Assembly: GCA_000997945.1 (NCBI GenBank) | Contig: LCCP01000002.1 | Location: 14,284 to 78,283, forward strand | Length of the DNA: 64,000 nucleotides | Source of the DNA: Parcubacteria group bacterium GW2011_GWC2_42_12 | Lineage (GTDB): Bacteria > Patescibacteriota > Patescibacteriia > Patescibacteriales > GWC2-42-12 | Reading direction: 5' to 3' | In this document: piece after piece, positions 11,318-63,409 of the stretch | Layout of the letters: the number at the start of each line of letters is the position of its first letter | Position numbering within the stretch: position 1 is the stretch's first letter | Notes under the pieces: generated by a model | Databases searched by the model: none | The model's input: the letters and a program-made list of their open reading frames with translations, nothing else | What the model was told of the DNA's origin: nothing | Translations under genes and position numbers: made by a program

Positions 11318-11508
11318 TGTCATTGCGAGCGACCGAAGGGAGCGTGGTCGTCGCTACGCGAGATCTGGCGTAGTCATGACAATCTCACGAACGGCAATGT
11401 GTCTAATATAAATAGTGGCGAGATTTAATGAAATATAGACATTCGTGAGATTGCGAAGCTTGTCCCGAGCGATAGCGAGGGATCTGTGTTCGCTCCTCGC
11501 AACGACAA
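11318..11508. repeat. MITE-like nested-palindromic repeat, subtype 2, copy A, in the rpoB-rpoC spacer
   Basis: TIRs TGTCATTGCGAGCGACCGAAGGGAGCG ... CGCTCCTCGCAACGACA; inner modules CTACGCGAGATCTGGCGTAG and AATCTCACGAACGGCAA...CATTCGTGAGATTGC. Confidence 0.75.
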
Positions 11509-11517
11509 TAATATATT

Positions 11518-14500
11518 ATGCTTAATCCAATTAAAACTTCCGATTTTGACGCCATTAAATTAAAATTAGCTTCGCCTGAAGTAATTTTAAATTGGTCGCA
11601 TGGCGAAGTCACCAGGCCGGAAACCATAAATTACCGAACGCAGAAACCGGAGAAAGACGGCTTGTTCTGCGAGCGCATTTTCGGGCCGTCCAAGGATTGG
11701 GAATGTTGTTGCGGCAAATACAAGAAAATTCGCTATAAAGGCATAATTTGCGATAAATGCGGGGTGGAGATTACGAGAAGCTTGGTTAGGCGCGAACGGA
11801 TGGGCCATATCAAGTTGGAAGCGCCGGTAACTCATATTTGGTTTTTAAGAGGAACATCTTCAAAAATCGGCTTAATCATGGATCTATCCATGCAGGCACT
11901 GGAGAAAGTGGTTTATTTCGCCAGTTTTATAATTTCTGATGTTAACGAGGAGCTACGGCTGGCTACCATTGAGCAAATTAAGCAAGAATATAAAAATAAA
12001 AGAAAGACCATTGAGCAAGATGGGCAGAAACAGATTAATGAGATCAAAAATAAAAAAGGCAAATTACTCACTCAAGGCAAGAGTGAATTTGAGATTGAAG
12101 ATATCCTAAGCGCGGAAATTGAGGTTTTAGAAAAGATCAGGAATGACAAATATAATGATTTAGAGCAAGCCTTTGACCAAGCGCAGAAGGAACTTAAGGA
12201 CTTAAAGCCGTTAACCATTATTTCCGAAAGCGTTTATCAAAATTTAAGCTTGAAATACGGCCATATCTTTACGGCCGATATTGGCGCCGATGCCGTCAGG
12301 AAGCTATTGGCCAAAGTTGATTTTGCTAAATTAATTCCCATGCTAGAAAAAGAATTAGCCGTGGCGATTGATTCAAAAAAAGATAAATTGATTAGACGTT
12401 TAAAGCTTTTAAAGAGCTTGCAGCAAAATAATTTAAGGCCCGAATGGATGATTTTGACCGTGGTGCCGGTAATACCGCCGGATCTCCGTCCTATGGTGCC
12501 GCTGGACGGCGGCCGGTTCGCCACCTCCGACTTAAATGATTTGTATCGCCGGATTATTAACCGCAATAATCGCTTAAGGCAGCTCTTAGATCTTAACGCG
12601 CCCGAGGTTATTTGCCGCAATGAAAAAAGAATGCTGCAGGAGGCGGTGGACGCGCTGGTAGATAATTCCATCAGGCACGGCAAGACCGTGGTGGCTTCAA
12701 CCGGGCAAAAAAGAATGCTTAAGTCGTTGGCTGATTCGCTTAAAGGCAAGCAAGGCCGGTTCAGGCAGAATTTATTAGGCAAGAGAGTGGATTATTCCGG
12801 CCGCAGCGTCATCGTGGTTAATCCTAATTTAAAATTGGACCAATGCGGTTTGCCCAAGCGCATGGCTTTAGAGTTATTTAAGCCCTTTATTATTTCCCAG
12901 CTCATCAATAAAGAGATTGTTCATAATGTTAGAAGCGCTTCTCGTTTTATTGAATCCGGGAAAGAGGAAGTTTGGGATATTCTGGAAGACATTGTTAAGA
13001 ACGCTTATGTCTTCCTCAATCGCGCGCCGACCCTGCATCGCTTAGGCATCCAGGCCTTTAAGCCGATCTTAATTGAAGGTTTGGCTTTGCAGATTCATCC
13101 GCTCGTTTGTACGGCTTTTAACGCCGACTTTGACGGCGATCAAATGGCCGTTCATGTGCCTTTGACCGAGGAAGCTATCGCCGAAGCTCGCGACATTATG
13201 CTTTCTAGCCACAATCTGCTTAAGCCGGCTACTGGCGACCCGGTAGTAACACCCAACCAAGATATTGTCTGGGGAGCTTTTTATATTACCAATATCGGTC
13301 CAGATTACGCGGCCGTTGATGGAACCAAATTAAAGAATTTTTACGCGCCCGAAGACGCCATGCTGTCCTATAACCTGGAAAATATAAAATTGCAGCAAAA
13401 GATCAGGGTGATGATTAACGGCAAGTTTATCATCACTTCGGTCGGCCGGATTATTTTTAACGAAGCTCTGCCGGTTAAGCTTAGGTTTGTCAACGAAGTC
13501 GTGGGCAAGAGCCGGTTAAGGAATCTAATCAAGGAATGTTTAAGGCACTTTGGCGAGCAAGCGACCATTGATTTATTGGATAAGATTAAAAATACCAGCT
13601 TTAAATATATTACTAAGAGCGGATTATCTTGGGGCATGGATGATATACCTCATCTTTATGAAAAGGATCAGATGATTGTTAATGCTACGGCTCAAGCCGA
13701 AGAAATCGGCGAACAATATCGCGACGGGCTCTTAACCGATAGCGAGCGCTATTCTAAAATTATTGAGCTTTGGACCACGGTTAAAGAGAAGGTTACGGAA
13801 ATTTGCCGTAATCATTTGCCTAAGGACGGACCGGTTTTTTCCATGATTGAATCAGGCGCGCGCGGTTCCTGGGCGCAGTTAACGCAGATTTTGGGCATGA
13901 AGGGCTTGGTAACCTCTCCTTCGGGCGATATTATTGAATTGCCGGTGACGGGTAATTTTAAAAAAGGTTTTAGCGTTTTGGAATATTTTATCGCCACGCA
14001 CGGCGTCCGCAAGGGTTTATCCGATACGGCTTTGAGAACCTCTAACGCCGGTTATTTAACCAGGCGTTTAGTCGATGTTTCCCAGGATATTATCGTGGTG
14101 AATGACGATTGCGGCGACAAAGAAGGGTTATTGATTGTTAAGAAAGAAAGCGAAGAAATGGGCGAGAATTTAGTTAAGCGCATGACCGGCAGATTTTTGG
14201 CGGCTGATTTAAAGAATAAGGCCGGTAAAGTTTTGTTAAAGACCGGCGAGCTCGTAACCGAGGATATCGCGGATAAAATTGCTAAAGAAGATATCAGAGA
14301 AGTGAAAGTTAGGTCAGTCCTGACCTGTAAAATACATCGCGGTATTTGCTCAAAATGCTATGGTTACGATTTGGCCTATAACAAACCGGTGAAAATCGGC
14401 ACGGCCGTAGGTATCATCGCCGCCCAATCCATCGGCGAACCGGGTACGCAGCTTACCATGAGAACTTTCCATACCGGCGGTGTGGCCGGCCAGGAAGATA

Positions 14501-15519
14501 TTACCCAGGGTCTGCCGCGCGTAGAAGAAATATTTGAAGCCAGGCCGCCGAAGAAGAAGGCCTTTATCGCTGATGTTGCCGGTACGGTTAAGATTGAAAC
14601 CGGTCAAAGAACCATTACCAATGAAACCGGCGAGATGATTATCTCTAATCCCCAGGCCAAGATTTTAAAAGTCTATTATCAAGGTTTGGAGACCGAAAAA
14701 TACCATTTTGCCGAAGCGATTCGCGAGGCCGTGCTGGAGAGCAAGACCAATAAGAAACAAGAAGTTCACCCCGTTAAATCCCGCAAGGCGGGAATTCTGC
14801 CGAAAGCAGAATTATTTAACGGGGTAGAAATCTTAGTTAAAGATGGCGTTACGGTTAATAAAAATAGCGAGTTATTTTCCATCGGCAAGAAAGTTTTTAA
14901 AGCTAGGCAATCAGGCATCGTAAAAATAGAAGATAAATTAATTAAAGTCATGAGCCAAGCGGAAAAGACTAAAGAATATGTCGTGCCTAAGGGCTTTGGC
15001 ATTTGGGTTAAGGACGGCGAAGAGATTAAGATCGGCGATCAGCTGACCGACGGCTCGCTGGATCTGCATCAATTGTATAATTTGCGCGACAAGTTGGAAG
15101 TGCAAAAGTATATTATTAAAGAGATTCAATATGTTTATTCTTCCCAGGGCCAGCCTTTGAATGACAAGCATATAGAGATTATCGCGCGCCAGATGTTCGC
15201 CCGGGTTTATGTTAATGATGCCGGCACGACTGAATTATTGCCCGGCGAAATCGTGGAAAAAGCGATTTTTGACCGCGTCAACGATGAAGCAAATCTCGCC
15301 GGAAAGAAAGAAGCCAAAGGCGAAGAACTATTATTAGGTATTACCAAGTCATCGTTAACCACTAATAGCTTTTTATCGGCCGCTTCATTTCAAGAGACGG
15401 CCAGAGTTTTGATTGACGCGGCCGTCACCGGTAAGATTGATTATCTTGAAGGCCTAAAAGAGAATGTCATAATCGGCCGGCCGATTCCGGCCGGAACCGG
15501 GTATCGGGCGCAAGTATAA
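11518..15519 (+). CDS. rpoC: DNA-directed RNA polymerase subunit beta'
   Basis: 1333 aa; Zn-finger CCGKYKKIRYKGIICDKCG, catalytic NADFDGD motif, trigger loop and bridge helix regions. Confidence 0.97.
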   Translation: MLNPIKTSDFDAIKLKLASPEVILNWSHGEVTRPETINYRTQKPEKDGLFCERIFGPSKDWECCCGKYKKIRYKGIICDKCGVEITRSLVRRERMGHIKLEAPVTHIWFLRGTSSKIGLIMDLSMQALEKVVYFASFIISDVNEELRLATIEQIKQEYKNKRKTIEQDGQKQINEIKNKKGKLLTQGKSEFEIEDILSAEIEVLEKIRNDKYNDLEQAFDQAQKELKDLKPLTIISESVYQNLSLKYGHIFTADIGADAVRKLLAKVDFAKLIPMLEKELAVAIDSKKDKLIRRLKLLKSLQQNNLRPEWMILTVVPVIPPDLRPMVPLDGGRFATSDLNDLYRRIINRNNRLRQLLDLNAPEVICRNEKRMLQEAVDALVDNSIRHGKTVVASTGQKRMLKSLADSLKGKQGRFRQNLLGKRVDYSGRSVIVVNPNLKLDQCGLPKRMALELFKPFIISQLINKEIVHNVRSASRFIESGKEEVWDILEDIVKNAYVFLNRAPTLHRLGIQAFKPILIEGLALQIHPLVCTAFNADFDGDQMAVHVPLTEEAIAEARDIMLSSHNLLKPATGDPVVTPNQDIVWGAFYITNIGPDYAAVDGTKLKNFYAPEDAMLSYNLENIKLQQKIRVMINGKFIITSVGRIIFNEALPVKLRFVNEVVGKSRLRNLIKECLRHFGEQATIDLLDKIKNTSFKYITKSGLSWGMDDIPHLYEKDQMIVNATAQAEEIGEQYRDGLLTDSERYSKIIELWTTVKEKVTEICRNHLPKDGPVFSMIESGARGSWAQLTQILGMKGLVTSPSGDIIELPVTGNFKKGFSVLEYFIATHGVRKGLSDTALRTSNAGYLTRRLVDVSQDIIVVNDDCGDKEGLLIVKKESEEMGENLVKRMTGRFLAADLKNKAGKVLLKTGELVTEDIADKIAKEDIREVKVRSVLTCKIHRGICSKCYGYDLAYNKPVKIGTAVGIIAAQSIGEPGTQLTMRTFHTGGVAGQEDITQGLPRVEEIFEARPPKKKAFIADVAGTVKIETGQRTITNETGEMIISNPQAKILKVYYQGLETEKYHFAEAIREAVLESKTNKKQEVHPVKSRKAGILPKAELFNGVEILVKDGVTVNKNSELFSIGKKVFKARQSGIVKIEDKLIKVMSQAEKTKEYVVPKGFGIWVKDGEEIKIGDQLTDGSLDLHQLYNLRDKLEVQKYIIKEIQYVYSSQGQPLNDKHIEIIARQMFARVYVNDAGTTELLPGEIVEKAIFDRVNDEANLAGKKEAKGEELLLGITKSSLTTNSFLSAASFQETARVLIDAAVTGKIDYLEGLKENVIIGRPIPAGTGYRAQV

Positions 15520-15524
15520 TATTA

Positions 15525-15707
15525 TGTCATTGCGAGGAGCTCCGCCAGCGGGCGGAGCGACGCGGCAATCTCTGGTTAGAAAGAAAGACGAGAATAAGAA
15601 AATGCGTTATTAACAAGATAAGATTTTGCTTAGAAGTATTTACAAATGATGTTTGCATGCGCTTTTGACCAGAGATTGCTTCGTCGCTGACGCTCCTCGC
15701 AATGACA
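15525..15707. repeat. MITE-like nested-palindromic repeat, subtype 1, copy B
   Basis: TGTCATTGCGAGGAGC...GGCAATCTCTGGTTAGAAAG...GACCAGAGATTGCTTCGTCGC...CGCTCCTCGCAATGACA, directly after the rpoC stop. Confidence 0.75.
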
Positions 15708-15806
15708 ATTCACATTATTTATTTGTTCTTTTAGATATCAAAAACAAAAAAGGCATTGTGGTTAAACCCGATGCCTTTTTTGTTTAGACAATAGACAAAA
15801 CTATTT

Positions 15807-16628
15807 TTATAATTGACGGATTCTTTCCGAATAGGCAGTAAGAGGCATCTTATGAATAGAGTCTCTCAAGTCCTCCTTAGAAACATTAAACGCGTCAAGA
15901 GTTCCTCTTAGGGCGGATACGGCTACTGCCCAGGCGTCTCGCTCTTCCTTTAAAACATTTTTTCCGGCAAACTCGTTAAGTTTTTGGGGTAAGAAAAAGT
16001 GGAGGTATGGTGAATTATAAATTTTTCTGGCCGTCGATTGTTTCACTGCCGTCCCTAGACCTTTTAGGGCTCCCCCGAGAGTGTCAGAATCAGAAATAAT
16101 TTTTTGCACAACTGTTGTATGACCTATCTCATGCAAAAGAGTCATTATACCCAGGAAGCTGTTAGGAGAAAAATAACAAAACACTTTATTTTTAGCTAAA
16201 CTGCTATGGAAATTTTTATTATCTATGGCAAAAAATATATCACGAACTTCAAAATCTTTCATTAAATCCAGTTCATTACCCGACGGATTATCAATCGAAA
16301 GACCTACCAATCGTCGGAATTTACCGGCTTCAATATCTTGTTTAAGCGATTCGGGGATTTCGTTTGAGGTTGAATAGGAATTAATCTCCTGCTCGCTTAA
16401 TGTTTCGTAAGTATACTCTAGCGTCCAGCCGTCTTTTAATTCAACTTTTTCTTTACCACTTTTTCCGTATTCAATATTGGGGTTAAATAAGCGGCGTACA
16501 CTTTCCGGATGCTGTTCAAAATGTTCCTGTTTGGTTTTGTGTTTTTCCTTGTCTGGCAAGGGAGGCTCAAGACGTCTTTCAAGGTAATTTTTTTTTGGAG
16601 CTTCAAATTTTGGCATTTCAATTCCCAT
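15807..16628 (-). CDS. putative zinc metallopeptidase (HExxH)
   Basis: The track lists this ORF as '+', but only the reverse complement encodes it: 16626..16628 is CAT (ATG), and revcomp of 16100-16125 gives LLHEIGHTT. HEIGH motif; 273 aa. Confidence 0.5.
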   Translation of the reverse strand: MGIEMPKFEAPKKNYLERRLEPPLPDKEKHKTKQEHFEQHPESVRRLFNPNIEYGKSGKEKVELKDGWTLEYTYETLSEQEINSYSTSNEIPESLKQDIEAGKFRRLVGLSIDNPSGNELDLMKDFEVRDIFFAIDNKNFHSSLAKNKVFCYFSPNSFLGIMTLLHEIGHTTVVQKIISDSDTLGGALKGLGTAVKQSTARKIYNSPYLHFFLPQKLNEFAGKNVLKEERDAWAVAVSALRGTLDAFNVSKEDLRDSIHKMPLTAYSERIRQL

Positions 16629-16641
16629 AGCATTGATTTCA

Positions 16642-17577
16642 TTACAAATTATATTTTTTCGCGTTTTCGTCGGCCAGATGCTGGATATAAGCGATTTGCT
16701 CTTTGCCGCGTTGGTCTTTGAATAAATGTTTAAATCGGCCTTGGGGCTTTAAATAATCTTCAACGCGCGGCGGCTGGGCTGGCCGTTTCATAACCTCGCC
16801 CAGTTGGCCGTTAATATATTCCACTACCGGGTAGATGCCGGTTAGGGCGGCTAATTTAGCCAGCTCGATTGTGTCCTTAGGTTCGGTTTTCCAACCCGGA
16901 ATGCAAGGCACGAGAATCTGTAAGTAAGACGGGCCGGCCGCGGCCGCGGCCCTTTTAACTTTTTTTATAATATCCAGGGGGTAGGCGACCGTGGTTTGCG
17001 CCACATATTTTAGGCCATGAGCCAAAGCCACGGCCAGCATGTCTTTTTTCATAAAATGCGAGCCTATGCCGACGAGATCTGGCGATTTGCCGGCCGGCGT
17101 GGTTGTAGTATTGGCCGCCCAAGGCGTGGCCGCGGATGCCTGGGCGCCGGTGTTCATATAGCCCTCATTGTCATAGCAAACATATAAAATATTTTCGCCC
17201 CGTTCCCACAGGCCGCTAATCAGGCCGAAACCAATATCAAAAGTGCCGCCGTCGCCGCCTTGGGCAACCACAAAAATTTTCGAATTACGATTTTCGATTT
17301 TCGATTTGTAGTCCAGCGCCGCTCTAATTCCGCTGGCGACAGGCGCCGCGTTTTCAAATAGCGAATGTATCCAGGGCAGACCCCAGGAGCTTTCCGGATA
17401 GGCGGTGGTGACGACTTCTAAGCAGCCGGTGGCGTTAGCGATAATCGTCTTCGGGCCTAAAGCGTCGGCAACTAAGCGGGCCGCGATCATCTGGCCGCAG
17501 CCGGCGCAGGCGCGGTGGCCGGGAGAGAGCAGAGTTTTTGGCGGTGTTAGTGTAATTTTATTTATAGTGATTGGCAT
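16642..17577 (-). CDS. porB: 2-oxoacid (pyruvate):ferredoxin oxidoreductase beta subunit (TPP-binding)
   Basis: GHRACAGCG cysteine motif and GGDGGTFDIGFG...YDNEGYMNTG TPP-binding motif. Confidence 0.85.
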   Translation of the reverse strand: MPITINKITLTPPKTLLSPGHRACAGCGQMIAARLVADALGPKTIIANATGCLEVVTTAYPESSWGLPWIHSLFENAAPVASGIRAALDYKSKIENRNSKIFVVAQGGDGGTFDIGFGLISGLWERGENILYVCYDNEGYMNTGAQASAATPWAANTTTTPAGKSPDLVGIGSHFMKKDMLAVALAHGLKYVAQTTVAYPLDIIKKVKRAAAAAGPSYLQILVPCIPGWKTEPKDTIELAKLAALTGIYPVVEYINGQLGEVMKRPAQPPRVEDYLKPQGRFKHLFKDQRGKEQIAYIQHLADENAKKYNL

Positions 17578-17654
17578 AATTTTTATTAGTTTAAAATGTA
17601 AAAATTAAAGTTGAAAATGACAGTTAAAAATGTAAAGTGAAAATTTCGCTTGAT

Positions 17655-17755
17655 TGTCATTGCGAGCGATTGAAAGGAGCGAAGCAATCCCTGGTTCGAA
17701 GGGATTTACCAGAGATTGCTTCGTCGCCCTGAGTACAGGGCTCCTCGCAATGACA
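17655..17755. repeat. MITE-like nested-palindromic repeat, short subtype-1 copy C, embedded in a larger AT-rich inverted repeat (about 17585..17818) built from AAAATGTAAAAT motifs
   Basis: TGTCATTGCGAGCGATTGAAAGGAGCGAAGCAATCCCTGGTT...ACCAGAGATTGCTTCGTCGCC...GCTCCTCGCAATGACA; flanking TTTACATTTT/AAAATGTAAA arms are mutually inverted. Confidence 0.7.
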
Positions 17756-17814
17756 AAAGAATTTTAAATTTTACACTGTCATTTTACATTTTGAGATTTC
17801 AATTTTACATTTTT

Positions 17815-18024
17815 TTAATTCGTTTCCATTATTTGTTTTTTTATACTCTCAAGTTTTATTTTATTTTTTTGCTCCACAAATTTAGAGGCATTGAGGATTT
17901 CAATTAGCACCGGTTTTTTACCTTTGGAAAGGTGAATTATAAAATTTCCGAGTTCCAAACAATGGTCAATCGGATCTTTGGCTATTTCCCAACTTAAGAT
18001 ATTGGTTTCAATATCGTATTGCAT
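17815..18024 (-). CDS. DUF2283-family small protein (antitoxin-like partner of DUF4258)
   Basis: MQYDIETNILSWEIAKD...GNFIIHLSKGKKPVLIEILNASKF matches the DUF2283 pattern (YD.E.D.L.I......G.ivGiEIL.AS). Track ORF 17815..18066 starts inside repeat D, so the start is trimmed to the Met outside the repeat. Confidence 0.5.
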   Translation of the reverse strand: MQYDIETNILSWEIAKDPIDHCLELGNFIIHLSKGKKPVLIEILNASKFVEQKNKIKLESIKKQIMETN

Positions 18025-18033
18025 ATCTTTGTT

Positions 18034-18214
18034 TGTCATTGCGAGCTTCTGAAAGAAGCGAAGCAATCTCTGGTTAGAAATGTTTTATTAGTTTAAAGTT
18101 AAATTTCCCCAAACAAAATTTAATTTGTTAATCAGGGCTATTTCCTTTTTTCCATTTTTCTTTCTTACCAGAGATTGCTTCGTCTCCGCCGGCTGGCGGA
18201 TCCTCGCAATGACA
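18034..18214. repeat. MITE-like nested-palindromic repeat, subtype 1, copy D, inserted between the DUF4258 and DUF2283 genes
   Basis: TGTCATTGCGAGCTTCTGAAAGAAGCGAAGCAATCTCTGGTTAGAAA...TTTCTTACCAGAGATTGCTTCGTC...GATCCTCGCAATGACA. Confidence 0.75.
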
Positions 18215-18222
18215 AATAGGAG

Positions 18223-18438
18223 CTATTTCACCGGAAAGAAAGTCATGATTTTTAAAATATCTCCGTCTTTTTTATAAATAACTTTTATGCCTTCCTTTTG
18301 CGCCGCCATTAGCTTGCCCTTGCGATTTTGTTTTTCCGGCGCGGCCACGGCGTCTTCAACCTGTTCGCGCGTAAAAAAAACCTTATGTCTATTTAAAATA
18401 TCAAATTTTTGTTCGGCGTATTTTGTGAAATAAAACAT
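18223..18438 (-). CDS. DUF4258-like small protein (putative toxin of a DUF4258/DUF2283 pair)
   Basis: MFYFTKYAEQKFDILNRHKVFFTREQVEDAV...GIKVIYKKDGDILKIMTFFPVK follows the DUF4258 pattern (FTKHA..K...R...........V.VVY...gd..ViTvy). Confidence 0.45.
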   Translation of the reverse strand: MFYFTKYAEQKFDILNRHKVFFTREQVEDAVAAPEKQNRKGKLMAAQKEGIKVIYKKDGDILKIMTFFPVK

Positions 18439-18442
18439 AAAT

Positions 18443-18844
18443 TTAAATTAACTTAACTCTTTTATATAAATATACATCGGCTATGGCAAAGATTTTCTTC
18501 GTCCAGGAGAGAAATTCATCGGCCTCTTTCTTAGAAATAAGCGCGCCACCGCCATAAAGATCCCAGTTTCGCTTGGCGCGCATTTCTTGGCCGATAATTA
18601 TTATATCTTGCTCTTTTATGATTTCTGACAGCTTGTTTATCAGCTCGGCCTGGTGCCCTTGGCGCGATTTCACCCGCAGATTATTTTTAGCGCAAACGGC
18701 GATAGCCAATTTCAGCAAAGCGTCATAGGAGAATTTAAAAATAACTTCCGGAATGTCCGAAGTTTGGGCGATCTTTAGATCGCGCGCTGCGGATTTATAG
18801 TATTGATCAATTTGCCTTGAGGTAAAAGCGAATTTTTCAAACAT
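18443..18844 (-). CDS. HEPN-domain protein (toxin-like partner of the upstream MNT)
   Basis: 133 aa, all-helical, contains RVKSRQGH (Rx6H HEPN-like motif); overlaps the MNT gene stop by 1 nt. Confidence 0.45.
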   Translation of the reverse strand: MFEKFAFTSRQIDQYYKSAARDLKIAQTSDIPEVIFKFSYDALLKLAIAVCAKNNLRVKSRQGHQAELINKLSEIIKEQDIIIIGQEMRAKRNWDLYGGGALISKKEADEFLSWTKKIFAIADVYLYKRVKLI

Positions 18845-19389
18845 TAGATTAGTTTTATGGTTTTATGGCCGAAAATATTGGCTATTAATTCGTCTTTTTG
18901 TTTTTTCCTTTTTTTAAGATCCGCCGCGGTTAGGTCAATGATATTAAACTCTCTCTTGAATTCCTTTTCCGTTTTAATCAGCAATCTTTTAGCTTCGATT
19001 GAAGAATGGCTGCCGATGAGGAGGATATCAATATCGCTGGCCGGCCCGAATTTATTATTGGCGTAGGAACCGAAAATATAAGCGTTGGTTAATTCGGGCA
19101 GATCTTTAAGCAGAGCCGTCAGCCGATTTTCCAGGCCATATTTTAAATGATAGAGTTTTTTTAATTCGTTTAACAGGGGATAGCGCCGATTTAGAGAATA
19201 ATGCCTTTGGTTGCCGATTGGCTTGGAGATTAAAACATTTTCCTTTTCCAGTTCTTTTAATTTTCTGTCTAAGTTGCCCGGGTCAAGAGAGAGCGCTCTA
19301 GCCAGTTCGTTGATGTAGTGTTCGGCGCCGGTATTGACGAAGTAATAGCCAAGCAATTTTTCGGTAATTTTTGATTTGAAATCAAGCAT
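18844..19389 (-). CDS. nucleotidyltransferase (MNT-type) with N-terminal winged-helix DNA-binding domain
   Basis: N-terminal HTH (INELARALSLDPGNLDRKLKELEKENVL); C-terminal YIFGSYANNKFGPASDIDILLIG (GS...DxD). Track start 19419 lies inside the operator palindromes, so the start is taken at the downstream Met (19389). Confidence 0.55.
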   Translation of the reverse strand: MLDFKSKITEKLLGYYFVNTGAEHYINELARALSLDPGNLDRKLKELEKENVLISKPIGNQRHYSLNRRYPLLNELKKLYHLKYGLENRLTALLKDLPELTNAYIFGSYANNKFGPASDIDILLIGSHSSIEAKRLLIKTEKEFKREFNIIDLTAADLKKRKKQKDELIANIFGHKTIKLI

Positions 19390-19396
19390 ATTTTTA

Positions 19397-19434
19397 TTGT
19401 AAATATTTACAATAATCATTGTATATTATTACAA
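19397..19434. promoter_or_regulatory. tandem TTGTA-N6-TACAA palindromes (putative TA-operon operators)
   Basis: TTGTAAATATTTACAA at 19397..19412 and TTGTATATTATTACAA at 19419..19434; the first is repeated exactly at 20244..20259. Confidence 0.45.
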
Positions 19435-19442: not shown

Positions 19443-19526
19443 TCAAGTCTGTCCGCGCGTCAGAAATATTTTATGTTTATTTAAAATATCAAATTTTTGC
19501 TCGGCGTATTTAGTAAAATAGATCAT
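19443..19526 (-). pseudogene. truncated duplicate of the DUF4258 gene 5' end (27 codons)
   Basis: revcomp encodes MIYFTKYAEQKFDILNKHKIFLTRGQT*; ~85% nt identity to the 5' end of 18223..18438. Confidence 0.5.
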
Positions 19527-19813
19527 ATATCAATTTGATATGTTATAACCGCGACAGCACCTCTTTAATATCAATTCCGCCTTTTTTTATTTTGGTAAAA
19601 TCAATGACTTTTTTCCATGGCTTGCCGGCCGTCTTTTTGTTTCTTCTCATAGTTATTCTCTAATTTTAGGTATTTTTTTAGCTATTGACATCATATTAAA
19701 TTGTGCTATACTAATCATAGGTATCAATCAGTGGAACTCTAGTGTCCGAAGCATCTTTAATAACAATTTCAAATTTTTGGGGTTGTTATTTTTTTTGTGC
19801 TAAAATAATAATC

Positions 19814-20259: not shown

Positions 20260-20304
20260 TAAAATATTAAGCCCGCTCGCGCGCCAGAAAAACTTTATGT
20301 TTAT

Positions 20305-20388
20305 TTAAAATATCAAATTTTTGCCTTGCCTCGCTGTAGCTTCGGCGAAGCGGGTCGTAGCTTCGGCGTATTTGATAAAGTAGAACAT
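20305..20388 (-). pseudogene. second truncated duplicate of the DUF4258 5' end, with an internal 18-bp tandem duplication
   Basis: revcomp MFYFIKYAEATTRFAEATARQGKNLIF*; shares CGCGCG(T/C)CAGAAA..TTATGTTTATTTAAAATATCAAATTTTTGC with the 19443..19526 copy; internal tandem repeat GCCGAAGCTAC(G/A). Confidence 0.45.
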
Positions 20389-21343: not shown

Positions 21344-21502
21344 TGTCATTGCGAACGACCGTTTATTTTTGTCATTCCCGCGAAGGCGGGAATCCAGATT
21401 AATTTTCGTTTTATCTTTCTGGATCCCCGGGTCTCGCTGGCGCTCGCCCGAGGATGACAGGAGAGGAGATTGCTTCGTCGCTGCTGCTCCTCGCAATGAC
21501 AA
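21344..21502. repeat. MITE-like nested-palindromic repeat, variant copy E (contains GTCATTCCCGCGAAGGCGGGAATCCAG sub-hairpin)
   Basis: TGTCATTGCGAACGACCG...TGTCATTCCCGCGAAGGCGGGAATCCAG...GAGATTGCTTCGTCGCTGCTGCTCCTCGCAATGACA. Confidence 0.7.
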
Positions 21503-21509: not shown

Positions 21510-22826
21510 TTATTTTCCAACGAATGTAGCTTGGTCACTTTTTTTGCCGGTCTGTTTAATTATTTTTTTAATTATTTCTTTGGTAATATCGCGTCCGCCT
21601 AGGCCGACGATGAAACTGGAAATATTGGCATTGGTCTGGCCTTGAGCCACGGCTTTAATGTCCGAAGCTAACGGACCAATATGGCCTAGAGAAATGGATT
21701 TATCTATAACCGCGACATTTTTAGCTGGTTTGATAATTTTTAGAATTTGTTCGGCCGGGAAGGGGCGGAAACATTTGATTTTTAGGATGCCAACGCCACC
21801 GATCCTTCTATTAGAGAACAAACCCCCCTCGCTCCCCTTGTCAGGGGGGAAGTTGCTAACCGTGTCTTTAATAGTGCCGATGACCGAACCCATAGCCACT
21901 AGTATAGTGTCGGGATTTTTTGGACCGGTATATTCCAGCCAGCCGTTATCAACTGTTATCAAATCTTTACTAGAATTTTTAATTTTGTCCCCCTTCGCTA
22001 ACGCTGCGGAGGATAAATAATTTTTAATTTTTAATGAAGGAAAAATTTTATGAAAAGCTTTATATTCCTGGTCAATAGTTTTTAGGCTGGCGATTAAGTC
22101 TTCATGCAATTCTTGCCTGATTTCCATATAATGGGCGGGCGCGGCTAAGGGGCCCATGGTGATGGGATTAGCCGGATCAAGGAAGGTTCCGGGCGCAGGC
22201 GCGTAATCTGGCAGGTATTTTTTTATCTGTTCGGCCGAGGGGATAATCACCGGTTCATACGAATGGGTCATAATATAACCGTCAACATTCACCATGACCG
22301 GCAGCTTAAGTCGCTCGGCAATTTTAAAGGCCATGATATGCTGGCTAACCGCTTCCTGGTGGTTTTCCGCGAACAAGAGAATCCAGCCGGCGTCTCTTAC
22401 TGCCATCACATCTTGCTGATCATTCCAAATATTGATTGGAGCTGACACGGCGCGGTTAGCGCAAGTTATGACCACGGGTAGACGCAGGCCGGCGATATTA
22501 AAAATTACCTCAATCATAAGCAAGAGCCCTTGCGAGCTGGTGGCGCTATAGGTTCGCACGCCAGTGGCGCTGGCGCCCAAAATAATAGAAGCGGCCGCAA
22601 ATTCTGATTCAGCCCGAACATATTCGTAGTCGGCCTGACCCCGCCCACCTCGCGAGCGAAACGTCGCGGGCGCGGCGTCGGCTTTAAATTGGGCCAGGTC
22701 TTCAACAATATGCGTTTGCGGCGTAATCGGGTAAGCGGAAATAACCGCCGGGGCGATATTTTTTACGGTTAGAGCGATGGCCCGGGAACCTTCTAACATC
22801 TGTTGTTTATTATTTTTGTTATTCAT
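21510..22826 (-). CDS. porA: 2-oxoacid (pyruvate):ferredoxin oxidoreductase alpha subunit
   Basis: 438 aa; typical PorA/KorA N-terminal and central regions; carries an in-frame GC-hairpin element at 21823..21849. Confidence 0.88.
   Translation of the reverse strand: MNNKNNKQQMLEGSRAIALTVKNIAPAVISAYPITPQTHIVEDLAQFKADAAPATFRSRGGRGQADYEYVRAESEFAAASIILGASATGVRTYSATSSQGLLLMIEVIFNIAGLRLPVVITCANRAVSAPINIWNDQQDVMAVRDAGWILLFAENHQEAVSQHIMAFKIAERLKLPVMVNVDGYIMTHSYEPVIIPSAEQIKKYLPDYAPAPGTFLDPANPITMGPLAAPAHYMEIRQELHEDLIASLKTIDQEYKAFHKIFPSLKIKNYLSSAALAKGDKIKNSSKDLITVDNGWLEYTGPKNPDTILVAMGSVIGTIKDTVSNFPPDKGSEGGLFSNRRIGGVGILKIKCFRPFPAEQILKIIKPAKNVAVIDKSISLGHIGPLASDIKAVAQGQTNANISSFIVGLGGRDITKEIIKKIIKQTGKKSDQATFVGK
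21823..21849. repeat. GC-rich short palindromic element, in-frame within porA
   Basis: CCCCCCTCGCTCCCCTTGTCAGGGGGG, encoding ...FPPDKGSEGG... in PorA. Confidence 0.6.
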
Positions 22827-22836: not shown

Positions 22837-23028
22837 TGTCATTGCGAGCGACCGAAGGGAGCGAAGTCATCGCTACGCGAGATCTGGCGTAGCCATGACA
22901 ATCTCACGAACAATGTGTATAGAAAATTATATTAAATGGTATGTTTAGTGGCTATTCGTCATGTCTGAGATTGCCTGCCTACCGGTAGGCAGGCTTCGTC
23001 GCTCGAGTACGAGCTCCTCGCAATGACA
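22837..23028. repeat. MITE-like nested-palindromic repeat, subtype 2, copy F (porD-porA spacer)
   Basis: TGTCATTGCGAGCGACCGAAGGGAGCGAAG...CTACGCGAGATCTGGCGTAGCCATGACAATCTCACGAAC...GAGATTGCCTGCCTACCGGTAGGCAGGCTTCGTCGCTCGAGTACGAGCTCCTCGCAATGACA. Confidence 0.75.
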
Positions 23029-23323: not shown

Positions 23324-23366
23324 TGTCATTGCGAGCTCCGACCAAGGCGTCGGAGCTCGCAATGAC
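23324..23366. repeat. minimal hairpin form of the TGTCATTGCGAG repeat (copy G, porG-porD spacer)
   Basis: TGTCATTGCGAGCTCCGAC-caaggc-GTCGGAGCTCGCAATGAC, perfect 19-bp stem. Confidence 0.7.
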
Positions 23367-23376
23367 GGTAAAAAAT

Positions 23377-23974: not shown

Positions 23975-24156
23975 TGTCATTGCGAGCCGCCTTTGTACTC
24001 AAGGCGGCGAAGCAATCTCTGGTTAGAAGCGCTTTACCAGTCTAAGGATAAATCTCTCTGAGCAAAATTAATTTTGTTGATTAAGGCTATTTTGTTTTTG
24101 TTTATTTTTTCTTTCTTACCAGAGATTGCTTCGTCGCTGTCGCTCCTCGCAACGAC
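23975..24156. repeat. MITE-like nested-palindromic repeat, subtype 1, copy H, flanked upstream by AAAATGTAAAAT motifs
   Basis: TGTCATTGCGAGCCGCC...GCGAAGCAATCTCTGGTTAGAAG...TTTCTTACCAGAGATTGCTTCGTCGCTGTCGCTCCTCGCAACGAC. Confidence 0.75.
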
Positions 24157-24165
24157 CATCGTCGT

Positions 24166-24864: not shown

Positions 24865-25085
24865 TGATATTTTCTTAAATTAGTTTTACTATATGAGAGT
24901 AAGCTAAATTCTTGGATATGAATATTATAACATTTATTTTATGAATAAACAAAATTTGGTTGATCTGGATCTGGAAATAGAAAAACGGCTTAAAAAGCGG
25001 GAAAAAAGAAAAAGACAACGGATGAAAGTTAGCGGCGCTATGGTTAAAGAATTGCAAAAGATGATAATGAGATAATTTTATTGTC

Positions 25086-25247
25086 TCGCTACGCGAGATC
25101 TGGCGTAGCCATGACAAAATAATCACAAAGTTGTATAATTAAATCACGCCTCAAGGCGCAAGCTAATTATTTAATTAATTTTTTCCGCTTAAAGAGCGGA
25201 TCCGCCTCGGGCGGAAATCAAACCTACCTGCCGGCAGGCAGGCCAGA
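25086..25247. repeat. degenerate/partial repeat copy I (CTACGCGAGATCTGGCGTAGCCATGACAA module followed by short GC hairpins)
   Basis: Shares the CTACGCGAGATCTGGCGTAGCCATGACAA module with subtype-2 copies, followed by hairpins CCGCTTAAAGAGCGG, CCGCCTCGGGCGG and CCTGCCGGCAGG. Confidence 0.5.
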
Positions 25248-26576: not shown

Positions 26577-26606
26577 TTCCCCCTGACAAGGGGGAGCTAG
26601 AGGGGG
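26577..26606. repeat. GC-rich short palindromic element (intergenic copy)
   Basis: CCCCCTGACAAGGGGGAG-CTAGAGGGGG. Confidence 0.5.
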
Positions 26607-26610
26607 TTTT

Positions 26611-38547: not shown

Positions 38548-38645
38548 GTCATTGCGAGCGACCGTAGGGAGCGAAGCAATCTCACGCACGTCTTATATAA
38601 TTATTCGTGGGATTGCTTCGTCGCCGAAGCTCCTCGCAATGACAA
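38548..38645. repeat. MITE-like nested-palindromic repeat, short subtype-2 copy J (AGTCATTGCGAG variant terminus)
   Basis: GTCATTGCGAGCGACCGTAGGGAGCGAAGCAATCTCACGCACG...TTCGTGGGATTGCTTCGTCGCCGAAGCTCCTCGCAATGACAA. Confidence 0.7.
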
Positions 38646-46558: not shown

Positions 46559-46687
46559 TTGCCATTGCGAGCTTCTGTAAGAAGCGAAGTAATCTCACGA
46601 ACGAATAGTATAAATCAAAATGGCGATTTTTAATTAATATTTGTTGTCTGTGAGATTGCTTCGTCGCGAACGCTCCTCGCAATGACA
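46559..46687. repeat. MITE-like nested-palindromic repeat, short subtype-2 copy M
   Basis: GCCATTGCGAGCTTCTGTAAGAAGCGAAGTAATCTCACGAACGAATAG...GTCTGTGAGATTGCTTCGTCGCGAACGCTCCTCGCAATGACA. Confidence 0.7.
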
Positions 46688-48095: not shown

Positions 48096-48229
48096 TGTCA
48101 TTGCGAGCGACTGTAAGGAGCGAAGCAATCTCGCGAACGGCAAAGAATAGCTATAATTAGTGTGGCGAGATTAATGAAATATAATCATACGTGAGATTGC
48201 TTCGTCGCAGAAGCTCCTCGCAATGACAA
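48096..48229. repeat. MITE-like nested-palindromic repeat, subtype 2, copy N
   Basis: TGTCATTGCGAGCGACTGTAAGGAGCGAAGCAATCTCGCGAACGGCAAAGAATAGCTATAATTAG...CATACGTGAGATTGCTTCGTCGCAGAAGCTCCTCGCAATGACA. Confidence 0.75.
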
Positions 48230-48507: not shown

Positions 48508-48688
48508 TGTCATTGCGAGTCCCGACGCTTTGGTTGGGACGAAGCAATTTCACGAACGGCCAAGAATAATCATAATTATATTATAGCGAAGTTTAATGGA
48601 ATGTAGATATGCGTGAGATTGTCATGGCTACGCCAGATCTCGCGTAGCGATGACCGCGTCGGACGAGTACGGCCTCCTCGCAATGACA
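48508..48688. repeat. MITE-like nested-palindromic repeat, subtype 2, copy O (inner modules in inverted order)
   Basis: TGTCATTGCGAGTCCCGACGCTTTGGTTGGGACGAAGCAATTTCACGAACGGCCAAGAATAATCATAATTAT...CGTGAGATTGTCATGGCTACGCCAGATCTCGCGTAGCGATGACC...CCTCCTCGCAATGACA. Confidence 0.75.
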
Positions 48689-49161: not shown

Positions 49162-49211
49162 AAAAAAACAATCCAGCCCCAGTTTAAAAAACTGGAGCTG
49201 GATTGTTTTTT
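49162..49211. terminator. bidirectional intrinsic terminator (CAATCCAGCCCCAGTTT-aaaaa-ACTGGAGCTGGATTG flanked by A7/T7)
   Basis: Near-perfect 16-bp stem between convergent yqeY and rel; the same CCAGC(C/T)CCAGTTT hairpin occurs inside repeat copy K. Confidence 0.7.
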
Positions 49212-53618: not shown

Positions 53619-53657
53619 AAATTAATTCAAAGTGGCAGGATTTAAGCAAAATTTTAT

Positions 53658-53699
53658 GTTCGTGAGATTGCTTCGTCGCTGCCGCTCCTCGCAATGACA
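53658..53699. repeat. partial repeat (right half) overlapping the start codon of the giant gene
   Basis: GTTCGTGAGATTGCTTCGTCGCTGCCGCTCCTCGCAATGACAAA; the ATG of 53694.. lies within CAATGACA. Confidence 0.55.
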
Positions 53700-61055: not shown

Positions 61056-61721
61056 ATGTTTGACGAACTAAAGAATAACCAAGCCGTACCGCCGGTTAAT
61101 CAGAGACCCTTAAGCGCGCCGCTAGCTCCGGCCGCGCCGGTCAGGGCTGAAGATATTTTCGCAGAAGTTGATAAGACCGCTAAACCGGAAGTTTTTAGGC
61201 CGAATTCGAGCGATCCTAACTCGCCCCGCGGCACCGTCATACCGCCGGAAACCGGTTGGAAAAAAAATAAGATGGCAGTCCTTGGTTTGTTGTTTGGCGG
61301 TTTGATAGTGGTCGTGGGCGGAGGCTATCTCGGCTTAAAATTAGCGACTACGAGGCCGGAGATTGATAACTCAACTATTATTCAGGAGCAACCTGGAAAC
61401 ACCGAAGTGGAAACGGCGACGCCAGCGCCGGCCGCCGAAGTTGATAATACGGCTGCTCCGATAATTCAGCAACCGGCCGCCGCCGTGGTTTTGGACAGCG
61501 ACCTTGATGGCTTGGCTGACGCGGAAGAAGCAACCTTTGGCACCGATATCAATAATTCCGATACTGATCAGGACGGCTTAACGGACCGGGAAGAGGCCAG
61601 AGTTTATCGGACTGATCCGTTAAATCCGGATACTGACGGCGATGGCTTTAAGGATGGCGACGAAATTAATAATGGCTATAATCCTAAGGGCGCGGGGAAA
61701 CTGTTGGAGATAAATAAATAA
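61056..61721 (+). CDS. membrane-anchored protein with thrombospondin-type-3-like calcium-binding repeats
   Basis: Pro/Ala-rich N-terminus, one TM, DSDLDGLADAEE, DTDQDGLTDREE, DTDGDGFKDGDE (DxDxDGxxDxxE). Confidence 0.5.
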   Translation: MFDELKNNQAVPPVNQRPLSAPLAPAAPVRAEDIFAEVDKTAKPEVFRPNSSDPNSPRGTVIPPETGWKKNKMAVLGLLFGGLIVVVGGGYLGLKLATTRPEIDNSTIIQEQPGNTEVETATPAPAAEVDNTAAPIIQQPAAAVVLDSDLDGLADAEEATFGTDINNSDTDQDGLTDREEARVYRTDPLNPDTDGDGFKDGDEINNGYNPKGAGKLLEINK

Positions 61722-61832: not shown

Positions 61833-62855
61833 ATGTTTAATCCTTTAAATTTTTTTAAGAAAAAATTAGCCGAATCGCCGGATTCTCTAAACAAACCAGC
61901 TGAGCCGGTCGTAGAAAAGCAAGTTCAAATTGATGATATTGCCATTCATACTATGCCGGAACGTTTCCGCCATCAGCCAAAAAAGGCGGATAGCGCCAAA
62001 ATCACCGGTTTATTGATTATTGGCGGCGGCGTAGTCATTTTAATTTTAGTTTCAACGGGGTTATATTTTTATTTATTTAAGACGCCAACCGTTACCGTTA
62101 AAGAGGAGCCGTCGACAGCCACGGTCACTCCGGCCAGCGAAAATCAAGTCCAGTCGGAAATTGATCAAAATACGGCCAGTTTAGGGACTTTAACCGCCAC
62201 GACAACTGAACCGACCGTGTTGCCGACTGACGATGATTTAGCCGCGGGAACCGCCAGCAGCGCTCCGGAGACGATTGAACAAGAATTAACCGTTGGTTTA
62301 ACGCCCGGATTGGATAGTGATAACGACGGTTTGACTGACGCGGCAGAAATTATTTTAAGCGCCAGCACTTCGACTCCGGATACTGACGGCGATGGTTATC
62401 TTGATGGCGCCGAATTGTTAAATCTGTATGATCCGGCCGGTTTGGGTAGATTAGCAACTAATCCTAATATCGCGCTTTATGATAATAAAACTTTTAATTA
62501 TACCGCGCTTTATCCGAGCGCTTGGCAAATATCCGTTAACGGCGGCGATGATTCAATCATGTTTAAAGCCGCCGGCAATCAGCTTTTGCAAATTATCGTT
62601 CAAGCCAATACGAGCCAACAGTCGCTTGACCAATGGTATATGGATCAGCTTGGCGCGATTACCATAAATGAGCCGGACAGAGTTTTCGGCGCCAATTGGC
62701 AAGGCATAAAAAGTTTAGACGGCCTGACTTTGTATTTAATGGACCCAAATCAAAAATACATTTTCACTCTGGCCTATAATCCGGGAGAAAATAATATTTT
62801 AGAATACATTAATATTTTTAACATGATGATTAAGTCTTTTAGCTTGAAAGAGTAG
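61833..62855 (+). CDS. membrane-anchored protein with thrombospondin-type-3-like calcium-binding repeats
   Basis: One TM (LLIIGGGVVILILVSTGLYFYLF), DSDNDGLTDAAE, DTDGDGYLDGAE motifs, C-terminal ~150-aa domain. Confidence 0.5.
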   Translation: MFNPLNFFKKKLAESPDSLNKPAEPVVEKQVQIDDIAIHTMPERFRHQPKKADSAKITGLLIIGGGVVILILVSTGLYFYLFKTPTVTVKEEPSTATVTPASENQVQSEIDQNTASLGTLTATTTEPTVLPTDDDLAAGTASSAPETIEQELTVGLTPGLDSDNDGLTDAAEIILSASTSTPDTDGDGYLDGAELLNLYDPAGLGRLATNPNIALYDNKTFNYTALYPSAWQISVNGGDDSIMFKAAGNQLLQIIVQANTSQQSLDQWYMDQLGAITINEPDRVFGANWQGIKSLDGLTLYLMDPNQKYIFTLAYNPGENNILEYINIFNMMIKSFSLKE

Positions 62856-62861
62856 CCATCT

Positions 62862-63302
62862 ATGGGAAAGATTGAAATCAACAACCGGTTAAACCGCAAA
62901 ATAGATTTAAAGCTGGTTAAACGGGTGGCGGTTGAATTCGCGCGCGTTTATAAAATAGAAGATAAAGAAATTTCCCTGGCTTTTGTCGGCGATGCCGAAA
63001 TTAAAAAAATCAATCAAGCTTATCGCGGACTGAAGGAGCCGACCGATGTTTTATCTTTCGCTGGAGCAGGGGATTATTTTGGGGAGATTATTATTGATTA
63101 TAGTCAAATCAAACGGCAGGCCGGTAAATTTAACCATAGCGCTAAACAAGAAATGATTTTTATTTTAGTCCATGGCTTACTGCATCTCTTGGGGCATGAT
63201 GATAAGACGGAAGCGGACCGATTAAAGATGATAGAGCTGGGCCAGAAATTTATATGTCATTGCGAGCGTAAGCGAAGCAATCTCACGAACGGCAAAGAAT
63301 AG
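62862..63302 (+). CDS. ybeY: endoribonuclease YbeY; the last ~17 codons are supplied by repeat copy Q
   Basis: HGLLHLLGHDD (H-x-x-x-H-x-x-x-x-x-H zinc motif); C-terminus ...KFICHCERKRSNLTNGKE reads through TGTCATTGCGAGCG. Confidence 0.85.
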   Translation: MGKIEINNRLNRKIDLKLVKRVAVEFARVYKIEDKEISLAFVGDAEIKKINQAYRGLKEPTDVLSFAGAGDYFGEIIIDYSQIKRQAGKFNHSAKQEMIFILVHGLLHLLGHDDKTEADRLKMIELGQKFICHCERKRSNLTNGKE

Positions 63303-63409
63303 TTATAATATAATAGTAGCGAGATTTAATGAAATATAGTCATGCGTGAGATTGCCTGCCTACCGGTAGGCAGGCTTCGTCGCTCGAGTACGAGCTCCTC
63401 GCAATGACA
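63255..63409. repeat. MITE-like nested-palindromic repeat, subtype 2, copy Q
   Basis: TGTCATTGCGAGCGTAAGCGAAGCAATCTCACGAACGGCAAAGAATAGTTATAATATAATAGTAGCGAGATTTAATGAAATATAGTCATGCGTGAGATTGCCTGCCTACCGGTAGGCAGGCTTCGTCGCTCGAGTACGAGCTCCTCGCAATGACA. Confidence 0.75.

Follow-up and report, generated by a model that had tools for sequence, protein, structure and literature searches.

The stretch of DNA analyzed here, 64,000 nucleotides of contig LCCP01000002.1 (hereafter, the window), comes from an uncultured groundwater bacterium of Candidatus Falkowbacteria, within the candidate phyla radiation (CPR), and carries, among other genes, rpoB and rpoC, porG, porD, and porA, topA, dprA, pth, der, lepB, hisS, yqeY, ybeY, dagK, and an open reading frame (ORF) of 2431 amino acids (aa). 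Scattered between these genes is a family of short palindromic repeats, which we refer to as the TGTC family. When up to one mismatch was allowed, the sequence TGTCATTGCGAG was matched 30 times on the two strands of the window, compared with an expectation of 0.19, and none of 100 shuffled sequences equaled this count. The matches pair into 15 full elements of 44 to 192 nt (a size first given as 43 to 195 bp), and there are, in addition, one half element (53623-53699) and one stand-alone module (25083-25126). All of the elements form long branched hairpins that are far more stable than those of shuffled sequences, for example, -85 versus -44 kcal/mol. The initial annotation of this DNA had proposed a dispersed, nested-palindromic, noncoding repeat family, and this is supported; the statement that nearly every intergenic spacer holds a copy was overstated, as copies lie in 15 of the 42 spacers and in 13 of the 26 spacers of at least 100 nt. 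The elements nevertheless account for approximately 27% of the intergenic DNA and 3.8% of the window, a density of about one copy per 3.5 kb. No further copies were found by an arm-profile scan of positions 1 to 11.3 kb and 25.2 to 38.5 kb.

The possibility that these repeats are an assembly or contamination artefact limited to the window contig, which had been raised from the outset, is refuted. We found no supporting point for it, and it retains practically no probability, since JGI, ENA, and NCBI provide six independent assemblies, of differing pipelines and samples, that contain the elements at 99.9 to 100% identity, and related copies are present on hundreds of other contigs. The records that match are Parcubacteria GW2011_GWC2_42_12 and GCA_001780215.1; exact-protein look-ups for strain-level comparison returned identical copies only.

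Every element is built as a doublet in which two unequal units stand head-to-head, and each arm forms its own stem-loop. From its outer end inward, an arm begins with YGTC and ATTGC and finishes with GCAAT and a short tail; between these parts, two purine-rich stretches flank a hairpin whose sequence is arbitrary. The stem of 5 bp (ATTGC...GCAAT) encloses an internal loop rich in purines together with this hairpin, which varies freely. The left arm has the short form (GAG-hairpin-CGAAGC), and the right arm, read on its own strand, has the long form (GAGGA-hairpin-GACGAAGC). The tag is TGTC at nearly all 30 ends in the window, the exceptions including CGTC at 23367 and AGTC at 38547, and the stem begins with A-T pairs at positions 1 and 2 in every arm. 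The tail reads CTC in the window copies and, in most other phyla, CCAG. Every copy in the window is arranged head-to-head; tail-to-tail doublets were seen in phage portal genes, and L227 has a single arm (comparison contigs are designated by L numbers throughout). Additional YGTCAT...ATGACR palindromes are nested at fixed joints; the nested palindrome GTCATCGCTACGCGAGATCTGGCGTAGCCATGAC, which has the same GTCAT...ATGAC ends, is also found alone.

Sequence variation within the arms shows how they pair. The right-arm boxes enclose 221 distinct sequences, the stems of which are unrelated in sequence; when the 113 of these sequences with a length of 12 nt or more were folded, 87% were more stable than shuffled versions of themselves (mean of -7.0 versus -2.5 kcal/mol), and the variable hairpin that follows the internal loop has 2 to 14 bp. 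Neither strand folds more stably than the other, and G-T pairs show no enrichment on either strand (21 versus 31); the hairpins are therefore DNA palindromes and not strand-specific RNA helices. The test of strand asymmetry for RNA-level selection on the hairpins was negative. Among 11 variant arms with ATCGC, 6 carried the compensating GCGAT, compared to 3 of approximately 440 canonical arms, and the partner arm of each compensated ATCGC...GCGAT arm was canonical. Compensation therefore preserves pairing within an arm and not between arms, which is the behavior of repetitive extragenic palindromic (REP) units.

Two kinds of centers lie between the arms, in agreement with the two subtypes described initially. 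The first is an AT-rich segment between CTGGTTAGAA and TTCTAACCAG, found in either orientation relative to the shell and present as CTGGTTAGAA...TTCTAACCAG in five window copies. The second, the subtype-2 core, is a nonpalindromic sequence of 58 nt that is well conserved in five window copies (nhmmer E values below 1e-17) and diverged or short in three more. The copies found in the window are as follows.

11318-11507, plus strand: subtype-2 element that fills the rpoB-rpoC spacer, starting 22 nt past the rpoB stop codon and ending 10 nt before the rpoC ATG.
15525-15707, plus strand: subtype-1 element between the rpoC stop codon (5 nt away) and a convergent gene, with both arms of the long type; the L360 site has no copy.
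17655-17755, plus strand: short subtype-1 element of 101 nt, missing from L360.
18034-18214, plus strand: subtype-1 element with its center inverted relative to those at 15525 and 43320; the L360 site holds a different repeat.
21344-21501, plus strand: composite element, with shell arms around a nested doublet of another family (21370-21458).
22837-23028, plus strand: subtype-2 element in the porD-porA spacer, its core degenerate, with a CTACGC module and an extra CTGCCTACCGGTAGGCAGG hairpin.
23324-23367, plus strand: minimal member of 44 nt in the porG-porD spacer, consisting of the outer boxes and one hairpin.
23975-24158, plus strand: subtype-1 element upstream of porG.
25083-25126, plus strand: stand-alone CTACGCGAGATCTGGCGTAG palindrome flanked by its own TGTC...GACA.
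38547-38644, plus strand: short element of 98 nt between topA and dprA, with a CTCACG inner stem and a 19-nt loop.
41672-41862, plus strand: subtype-2 element between pth and der, both minus-strand genes, with a CTACGC module and a core at 41737-41811.
43320-43495, plus strand: subtype-1 element between der and a LytR-family gene.
46560-46687, plus strand: subtype-2 element whose core has diverged, located between lepB and hisS and ending 9 nt ahead of the hisS ATG.
48096-48228, plus strand: subtype-2 element with a core at 48129-48200, starting 10 nt past the hisS stop codon.
48508-48688, plus strand: subtype-2 element with a core at 48549-48621, upstream of yqeY, with its CTACGC module inverted and on the right arm.
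53623-53699, plus strand: half element consisting of the right part of a core and the right arm.
63255-63409, plus strand: subtype-2 element with a core at 63281-63355, ending 11 nt before the dagK ATG.

The modular construction of these copies is evident at 11318, where the left arm is followed by a nested CTACGCGAGATCTGGCGTAG palindrome, then by the core (11383-11454), and last by a right arm of elaborated form. At 48508, arm profiles showed that the shell has the common orientation and that only the CTACGC module lies on the other arm. The left unit of the doublet nested at 21370-21458, TGTCATTCCCGCGAAGGCGGGAATCCAG, translates as VIPAKAGIQ and is of the published CGTC-1 type.

The elements stand very close to genes, starting 5 to 22 nt past stop codons and ending 7 to 17 nt ahead of start codons. 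The identities of rpoB and rpoC and of porG, porD, and porA were confirmed, as were the copies reported in the rpoB-rpoC spacer and in all of the por spacers. In two cases the element contributes to an ORF. The first 48 nt of the 63255 element encode the end of YbeY; the extension noted earlier is real, but it amounts to 15 residues (CHCERKRSNLTNGKE) past the Pfam domain, followed by the stop codon, and not 17. At 53623, the upstream ORF terminates inside the half element, and the first ATG of the 2431-aa ORF (53694) lies within the terminal box CTCGCAATGACA, as had been proposed. Nearly all genes in the window lack a Shine-Dalgarno motif and have A/T-rich leaders in the 30 nt upstream of their starts, and many start codons are located 7 to 17 nt from a large hairpin.

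Because of their position inside the rpoB-rpoC and porG-D-A spacers, these elements must be transcribed. The terminator reading offered initially is not supported: in the 38- to 54-kb region where terminators were called, no copy is followed by a T-run, although a canonical terminator was detected at 49164-49210. It is plausible that the cotranscribed elements act as predicted mRNA hairpins that affect processing or stability. A stronger version of this idea is that the elements are cis-regulatory RNA hairpins that are selected by the host and kept for mRNA processing, stability, or translational coupling between cistrons. Escherichia coli REPs, Neisseria Correia elements, and Yersinia enterobacterial repetitive intergenic consensus (ERIC) elements provide precedents; the spacing from stop and start codons in the essential rpoBC and porGDA operons, the retention of the rpoB-rpoC copy in a species that is approximately 18% diverged, and stems long enough to be RNase III substrates are all consistent with it. 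Liang, Rudd, and Deutscher are also said to have reported in 2015 that REPs located no more than 15 nt from a stop codon lower expression via ribosome stalling. We nevertheless consider host selection of this kind unlikely, since the orientation of the elements is independent of the direction of transcription, the hairpins show neither strand asymmetry nor G-U enrichment, most copies are not conserved between relatives, and there are no T-tails and no Rfam family; moreover, it would account for tolerance or exaptation of the elements, not for their origin and spread.

The subtype-2 core had been suggested to be a small RNA, a mobile promoter, or a protein-binding site. A scan that fixed only the inner stems recovered 116 metagenome stretches, apparently mostly from groundwater samples, in which a profile built from the window cores detected 38 cores; the same profile detected none in 240 reference-genome and viral loci, and the same shell also carries other types of center. 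The structured small RNA was not borne out: no Rfam family reached its gathering threshold anywhere in the window, a search at E values of up to 10 on 41.6 to 48.75 kb returned nothing relevant and nothing on the elements, and RNAalifold analysis of 34 distinct cores found only the invariant inner stem, with no helix and no covariation inside the core.

Most core columns are 80 to 99% conserved, and 32 of 36 cores run along the G-rich strand. It is tentatively possible, although on balance improbable, that the core serves as a mobile promoter or a protein-binding module that the hairpin shell delivers, with its -10 box driving the downstream gene in a genome without Shine-Dalgarno leaders. The ATAAT box is at least 90% conserved, with T/CATAAT in 24 of 34 core copies; core and downstream gene run in the same direction in 24 of the 31 informative cases; cores were found only in metagenome contigs; intact cores in the window stand 6:1 in plus-strand gene contexts, compared with 0:5 for subtype-1 centers; and orthologous cores are as alike as random pairs, suggesting constraint. 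Against this, there is no acceptable -35 box (CTCACG fits 3 of 6 positions), the count of promoter-like hits for the region does not rise above that of shuffled sequences (45 versus 35 ± 5.7), codirectionality is confounded with the leading-strand gene bias, and the best-conserved stretch, the 30 nt downstream of the ATAAT box, is dispensable for a promoter. A promoter or protein-site role of the core is therefore no more than possible. A separate candidate, in which the outward -35 box (ATGACA) at element ends forms a hybrid promoter, was rejected because start codons follow within 7 to 17 nt.

Comparison with related genomes demonstrated that copies are gained and lost. Contig L360 is orthologous to window positions 11380 to 18442 at approximately 82% nucleotide identity. 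Its rpoB-rpoC spacer holds an orthologous subtype-2 element at the same place, composed of different modules, but it has no copies at the sites corresponding to 15525, 17655, and 18034, two of which hold other repeat families. Similarly, sites that are filled in L257 and L336 are empty in L295 and L333, and among alphaproteobacterial-type phage contigs an element separates a stop codon from the gene that follows in L153, L157, L167, and L229 but is absent from L190. Genes themselves are also invaded, not only at the YbeY C terminus: SPP1-type portal genes carry in-frame insertions of 57 nt in L141 and L228 and of 186 nt in L150, compared to L172, L128, and L149. These portal genes gain 19 and 62 codons without a stop, and the ORFs stay open, as is the case for Rickettsia palindromic elements. 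The portal copies (L141, 4697-4786; L228, 1060-1149; L150, 8769-8987) are tail-to-tail or complex, and the related phages L172, L128, L149, L188, and L222 are without the insertion. Loss can occur through recombination, since L227 differs from L144 by a deletion between two direct arms.

Insertion leaves no recognizable duplication. At the flanks of 217 distinct copies, direct repeats of 2 to 8 nt were as frequent as in shuffled flank pairs; the target-site duplications that had been anticipated at such sites are therefore absent above the level of chance. In the same 217 copies, the terminal base pair covaries (T..A in 115, C..G in 77, and mismatched in 25), and the flanking bases are a pyrimidine at -1 in 79% and a purine at +1 in 80%. 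These data bear on the earlier description of the elements as miniature inverted-repeat transposable elements (MITEs), that is, deletion derivatives of an insertion sequence (IS) whose DDE transposase binds the 12-bp inverted repeats and pastes the element into AT-rich targets. Perfect 12-bp inverted termini (TG...CA), a length of 44 to 192 nt, an intergenic location, and presence or absence that varies between relatives all fit this model. It is very unlikely to be correct in the classical sense, given the lack of target-site duplications, the existence of single arms, the self-folding REP-type arms in which compensatory changes are confined to one arm, and the finding that no transposase gene, and no IS sharing the element ends, was present among the scanned ORFs of the window or in approximately 3 Mb of loci; in addition, the occurrence of the same boxes in approximately 15 phyla would require one extremely conserved transposase.

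Other repeat families were also encountered. A third short-repeat family, composed of ACGAAT/TTCGATTTTCG units (window, 17272-17296; L360, reverse complement, 6060-6125 and 6340-6440; L333, 1630-1725; L295, 1975-2070), is found in spacers where the sister genome has TGTC elements; intergenic spacers give the impression of hot spots at which several repeat families turn over. A strain polymorphism was observed in L362 (333-521) relative to L250 (at 7331), L270, L280, L287, and L325, the flanks of which are 99.7 to 100% identical: the terminal box of a TGTC element (CTCGCAA|TGACA) is interrupted by the insertion of an unrelated element of 188 nt that has CCGAGGGGCAGAGCCCCTCGG hairpins. In L264 and L354, another widespread palindrome, CCCCTCTCCTTGCTAAGGAGAGGG...GGGGTGAGG, replaces 27 nt of L256 (11012-11039) in contigs that are otherwise 98 to 99.8% identical.

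The TGTC family extends far beyond the CPR. Among the matches listed, the right-arm box pair TTGCTTCGTC-N6-30-CTCGCAAYGAC was found at at least 120 reference-genome loci from about 15 phyla; among the hosts are Bradyrhizobium and many other Alphaproteobacteria, Gammaproteobacteria, Desulfobacterota, Myxococcota, Bacteroidota, Ignavibacteriota, Chloroflexota, Planctomycetota, Verrucomicrobiota, Zixibacteria, Latescibacterota, Armatimonadota, Fibrobacter, Binatia, and several Patescibacteria. Again among the matches listed, the pair was found in at least 120 IMG/VR viral contigs. The usual form elsewhere is CGTCATTGCGAGCGAAGCGAAGCAATCCAG, approximately 20 nt, and CTGGATTGCTTCGTCGCTTCGCTCCTCGCAATGACG, with the same short/long asymmetry. 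Plasmids of Methylosinus, Novosphingobium, Methylocystis, and Legionella carry copies, with no annotation beneath the matches, and in Novosphingobium the family is present at at least 40 places on one replicon. A literature search by sequence strings returned chance primer matches only, and a search for literature on repeats in CPR genomes found nothing specific.

The orientation of the elements is not random. In all 16 shells in the window, the long-type arm is on the right of the plus strand (15 are short-then-long, and the 15525 element is long at both ends), and nine of these same-oriented shells sit among minus-strand genes. If orientation were random, the probability that 15 further copies agree with the first would be approximately 3e-5. 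Throughout the window, GC skew is positive. The signal in the viral and metagenome sets is modest: the majority orientation followed the skew sign in 20 of the 27 dereplicated metagenome loci (p = 0.02) and agreed with gene-balanced skew in 8 of 10 loci; orientation in multicopy loci was concordant by 10:6, and a regex-based count over all sets gave 38:14 in concordance with skew. The strand bias is real but partial, and we read it, indirectly, as a signature of single-strand insertion at the replication fork.

Di Nocera, De Gregorio, and Rocco (2013; PMC3733652) describe a REP superfamily tagged CGTC, with TGTC and CCTC variants, in which an unpaired terminal tag at the outer end precedes a stem of 8 to 9 bp that starts with A-T pairs, a loop of 4 to 5 nt, and a CCA-like tail. 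According to their text, the units form mostly head-to-head doublets, often of two different units, with tail-to-tail pairs rare and single units known; nesting in other palindromes is frequent, intragenic copies include the Rickettsia palindromic elements (RPEs), and no transposase is associated. As far as that text allows comparison, the TGTC family shares the C/TGTC tag, the A-T-first stem, a short tail (which reads CTC and not CCA in the window copies), the head-to-head doublets, nesting in other palindromes, the intergenic position after genes, the in-frame intragenic copies, and the lack of a linked transposase. The nested 21370 unit TGTCATTCCCGCGAAGGCGGGAATCCAG is identical in translation (VIPAKAGI) to the CGTC-1 entries described there, and it is the only unit to which the reported 8- to 9-bp stem and 4- to 5-nt loop apply (ATTCCCGC GAAG GCGGGAAT). 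The TGTC family differs in that its translation (VIAS...KQS) is missing from the intragenic peptides listed in that text; Patescibacteria/CPR and most of the approximately 15 phyla lie outside the five that it reports; and, relative to that description, the density in the window is far higher and a conserved nonpalindromic core is present. Overlap with the "Bradyrhizobium CGTC-1 with long loops" of that paper is possible, to judge from its text.

The TGTC elements also resemble REP doublets forming hairpins (REPINs), which consist of two inverted REP units with a spacer that is conserved within a population, give rise to single units as decay products, fold as one long or two short hairpins, and leave no target duplications. 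REPINs differ in having a GTAG tag, compared to YGTC here, and in being lineage specific in sequence, whereas the TGTC boxes are common to many phyla. Bertels and Rainey reportedly showed in 2011 that REPINs are mobilized by REP-associated tyrosine transposases (RAYTs); no RAYT gene flanked by TGTC-family repeats was found in the window or in the 356 loci searched. Bacterial interspersed mosaic elements (BIMEs) of E. coli, built from Y and Z REPs, are likewise mosaics of a few palindromic modules, with unequal inverted REP pairs and extra motifs between them; their sequences are unrelated to those of the TGTC family, and their partners are integration host factor (IHF), gyrase, and Pol I. Correia and ERIC elements are short inverted-repeat elements that are cotranscribed, form mRNA hairpins, and may carry promoter boxes; Correia elements differ, however, in their TA target duplication, 26-bp inverted repeats, and IHF site, as no duplication accompanies the TGTC family.

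The search for a mobilizing enzyme was extended to the flanks of these loci. A tblastn search of the window and 356 loci with seven RAYT/TIRYT (terminal inverted repeat [TIR]-associated tyrosine transposase) queries gave one hit, at an unrelated GTAG-type locus in L320. Clustering of 6170 flanking ORFs from approximately 3 Mb of loci revealed no specific recurrent neighbor. UvrA, which appeared to recur, was rejected as an ABC-ATPase linkage artefact, uvrA being present in only 2 loci. The L320 hit is an IS200-like Y1 transposase gene (4108-4773; PF01797, E = 1.3e-4), 3.8 kb from the nearest TGTC copy and followed by a GTAG-type REP hairpin, GTAGAGGTTGAGGTTGAACCTCC... (4775-4830); this arrangement suggests that the same community harbors a distinct RAYT-like system, which would be unlinked to the TGTC family.

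Taken together, these data are best described by a genuine, very dense family that represents a new architectural variant of the CGTC-tagged REPs, with short/long doublets, nested modules, and lineage-specific cargo. We consider it probable that the elements are head-to-head doublets of REP-type units that belong to the (C/T)GTC-tagged superfamily and that constitute nonautonomous, REPIN- or BIME-like selfish DNA, not DDE-type MITEs. Their behavior is that of selfish DNA: they leave no target duplication, have no linked transposase, are borne by phages, are tolerated in essential operons, and lie in frame within genes. In this reading, an element lands in an AT-rich gap of 15 to 30 nt between genes, or in frame inside a gene, without duplicating its target, is later lost or reshuffled by recombination between arms, and travels on phages. 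Movement would take place as single-stranded hairpin DNA at the replication fork, by means of a trans-acting enzyme encoded elsewhere; such fork-coupled, single-strand movement would explain why the elements have a single orientation on the G-rich strand. The subtype-2 core would be lineage-specific cargo of one sublineage, and copies inserted into rpoBC and porGDA would necessarily be cotranscribed.

Several observations weigh against this interpretation. No mobilizing enzyme was found in the window or in approximately 3 Mb of flanking DNA, and no recent, clean insertion junction of the TGTC family was found; the filled and empty sites all come from genomes that are 75 to 90% identical and do not resolve the exact chemistry of excision or insertion. 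Membership of the superfamily is imperfect, as judged against the text of PMC3733652 and not its consensus figure, since the family has a 5-bp stem with an internal loop and a variable second hairpin. Outside the window, orientation and skew are only modestly linked, gene-strand bias is a confounder, and the reference-genome set shows no orientation bias (58:69). Finally, orthologous cores are 61 to 74% identical in species that are approximately 83% identical, compared to a mean of 73% for random pairs, which suggests constraint or concerted evolution more readily than purely neutral cargo; a subset of core positions may be held constant by either process, with the rest saturated.

A broader proposal is that the YGTCAT...ATGACR shell is one domain-wide mobile DNA, carried between phyla by phages and spread, with no enzyme encoded by the element itself, by a universal host activity on single-stranded hairpins at the replication fork, with the 58-nt cargo of the CPR sublineage acting as a portable promoter or leader for genes that lack a Shine-Dalgarno motif. 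This proposal would explain the identical boxes in approximately 15 phyla, the absence of target-site duplications and of a transposase, and the strand-biased orientation; we regard it as speculative and quite unlikely.

Several other repeats in the window are distinct from the TGTC family. A second palindromic family, AACCCCCCT...CCCCTTGTCAGGGGGG, is present at 21815-21855 (in porA), at 32235-32265 (in the gene at 31914-32819), and at 26578-26610 (intergenic), as well as in L360 (reverse complement, 5685-5775); in the two genes it is in frame and yields the peptides FPPDKGSEGG and QPPLFPPYQGG. The sequence CCCCTNNNNAGGGG occurs 3 times, compared to an expectation of 0.03. A segment of 82 nt is found three times (18361-18442, 19449-19530, and 20273-20354; 61 to 84% identity) and encodes on the minus strand a conserved N terminus, MFYFTKYAEQKFDILNRHK, beside a nucleotidyltransferase gene (18844-19419); these segments may be toxin-antitoxin paralogues or remnants thereof. 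The direct repeats at 36534-36632 and 36714-36812 are topA zinc-ribbon repeats, and those at 61625-61684 and 62375-62434 are bacterial thrombospondin type-3 (TSP3) repeats in two adjacent surface-protein genes; both are ordinary domain repeats.

In practical terms, repeats of this kind disrupt metagenome-assembled genomes, give rise to spurious small ORFs, and make gene callers shift the ends of genes, as illustrated by YbeY and the 2431-aa ORF. CGTC-type palindromes are, to our knowledge, among the most widespread bacterial repeats, and we know of no enzyme or function that has been assigned to them. The genome examined here provides a dense natural laboratory for their study, with a single orientation across one replichore, copies within rpoBC and porGDA, and nested modules. 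Together with relatives and phages that exhibit gain, loss, and in-frame insertion, it makes the questions posed in 2013 testable, namely, whether these repeats move as single-stranded DNA, whether they are carried by phages, and whether they have been exapted as RNA or promoter elements.

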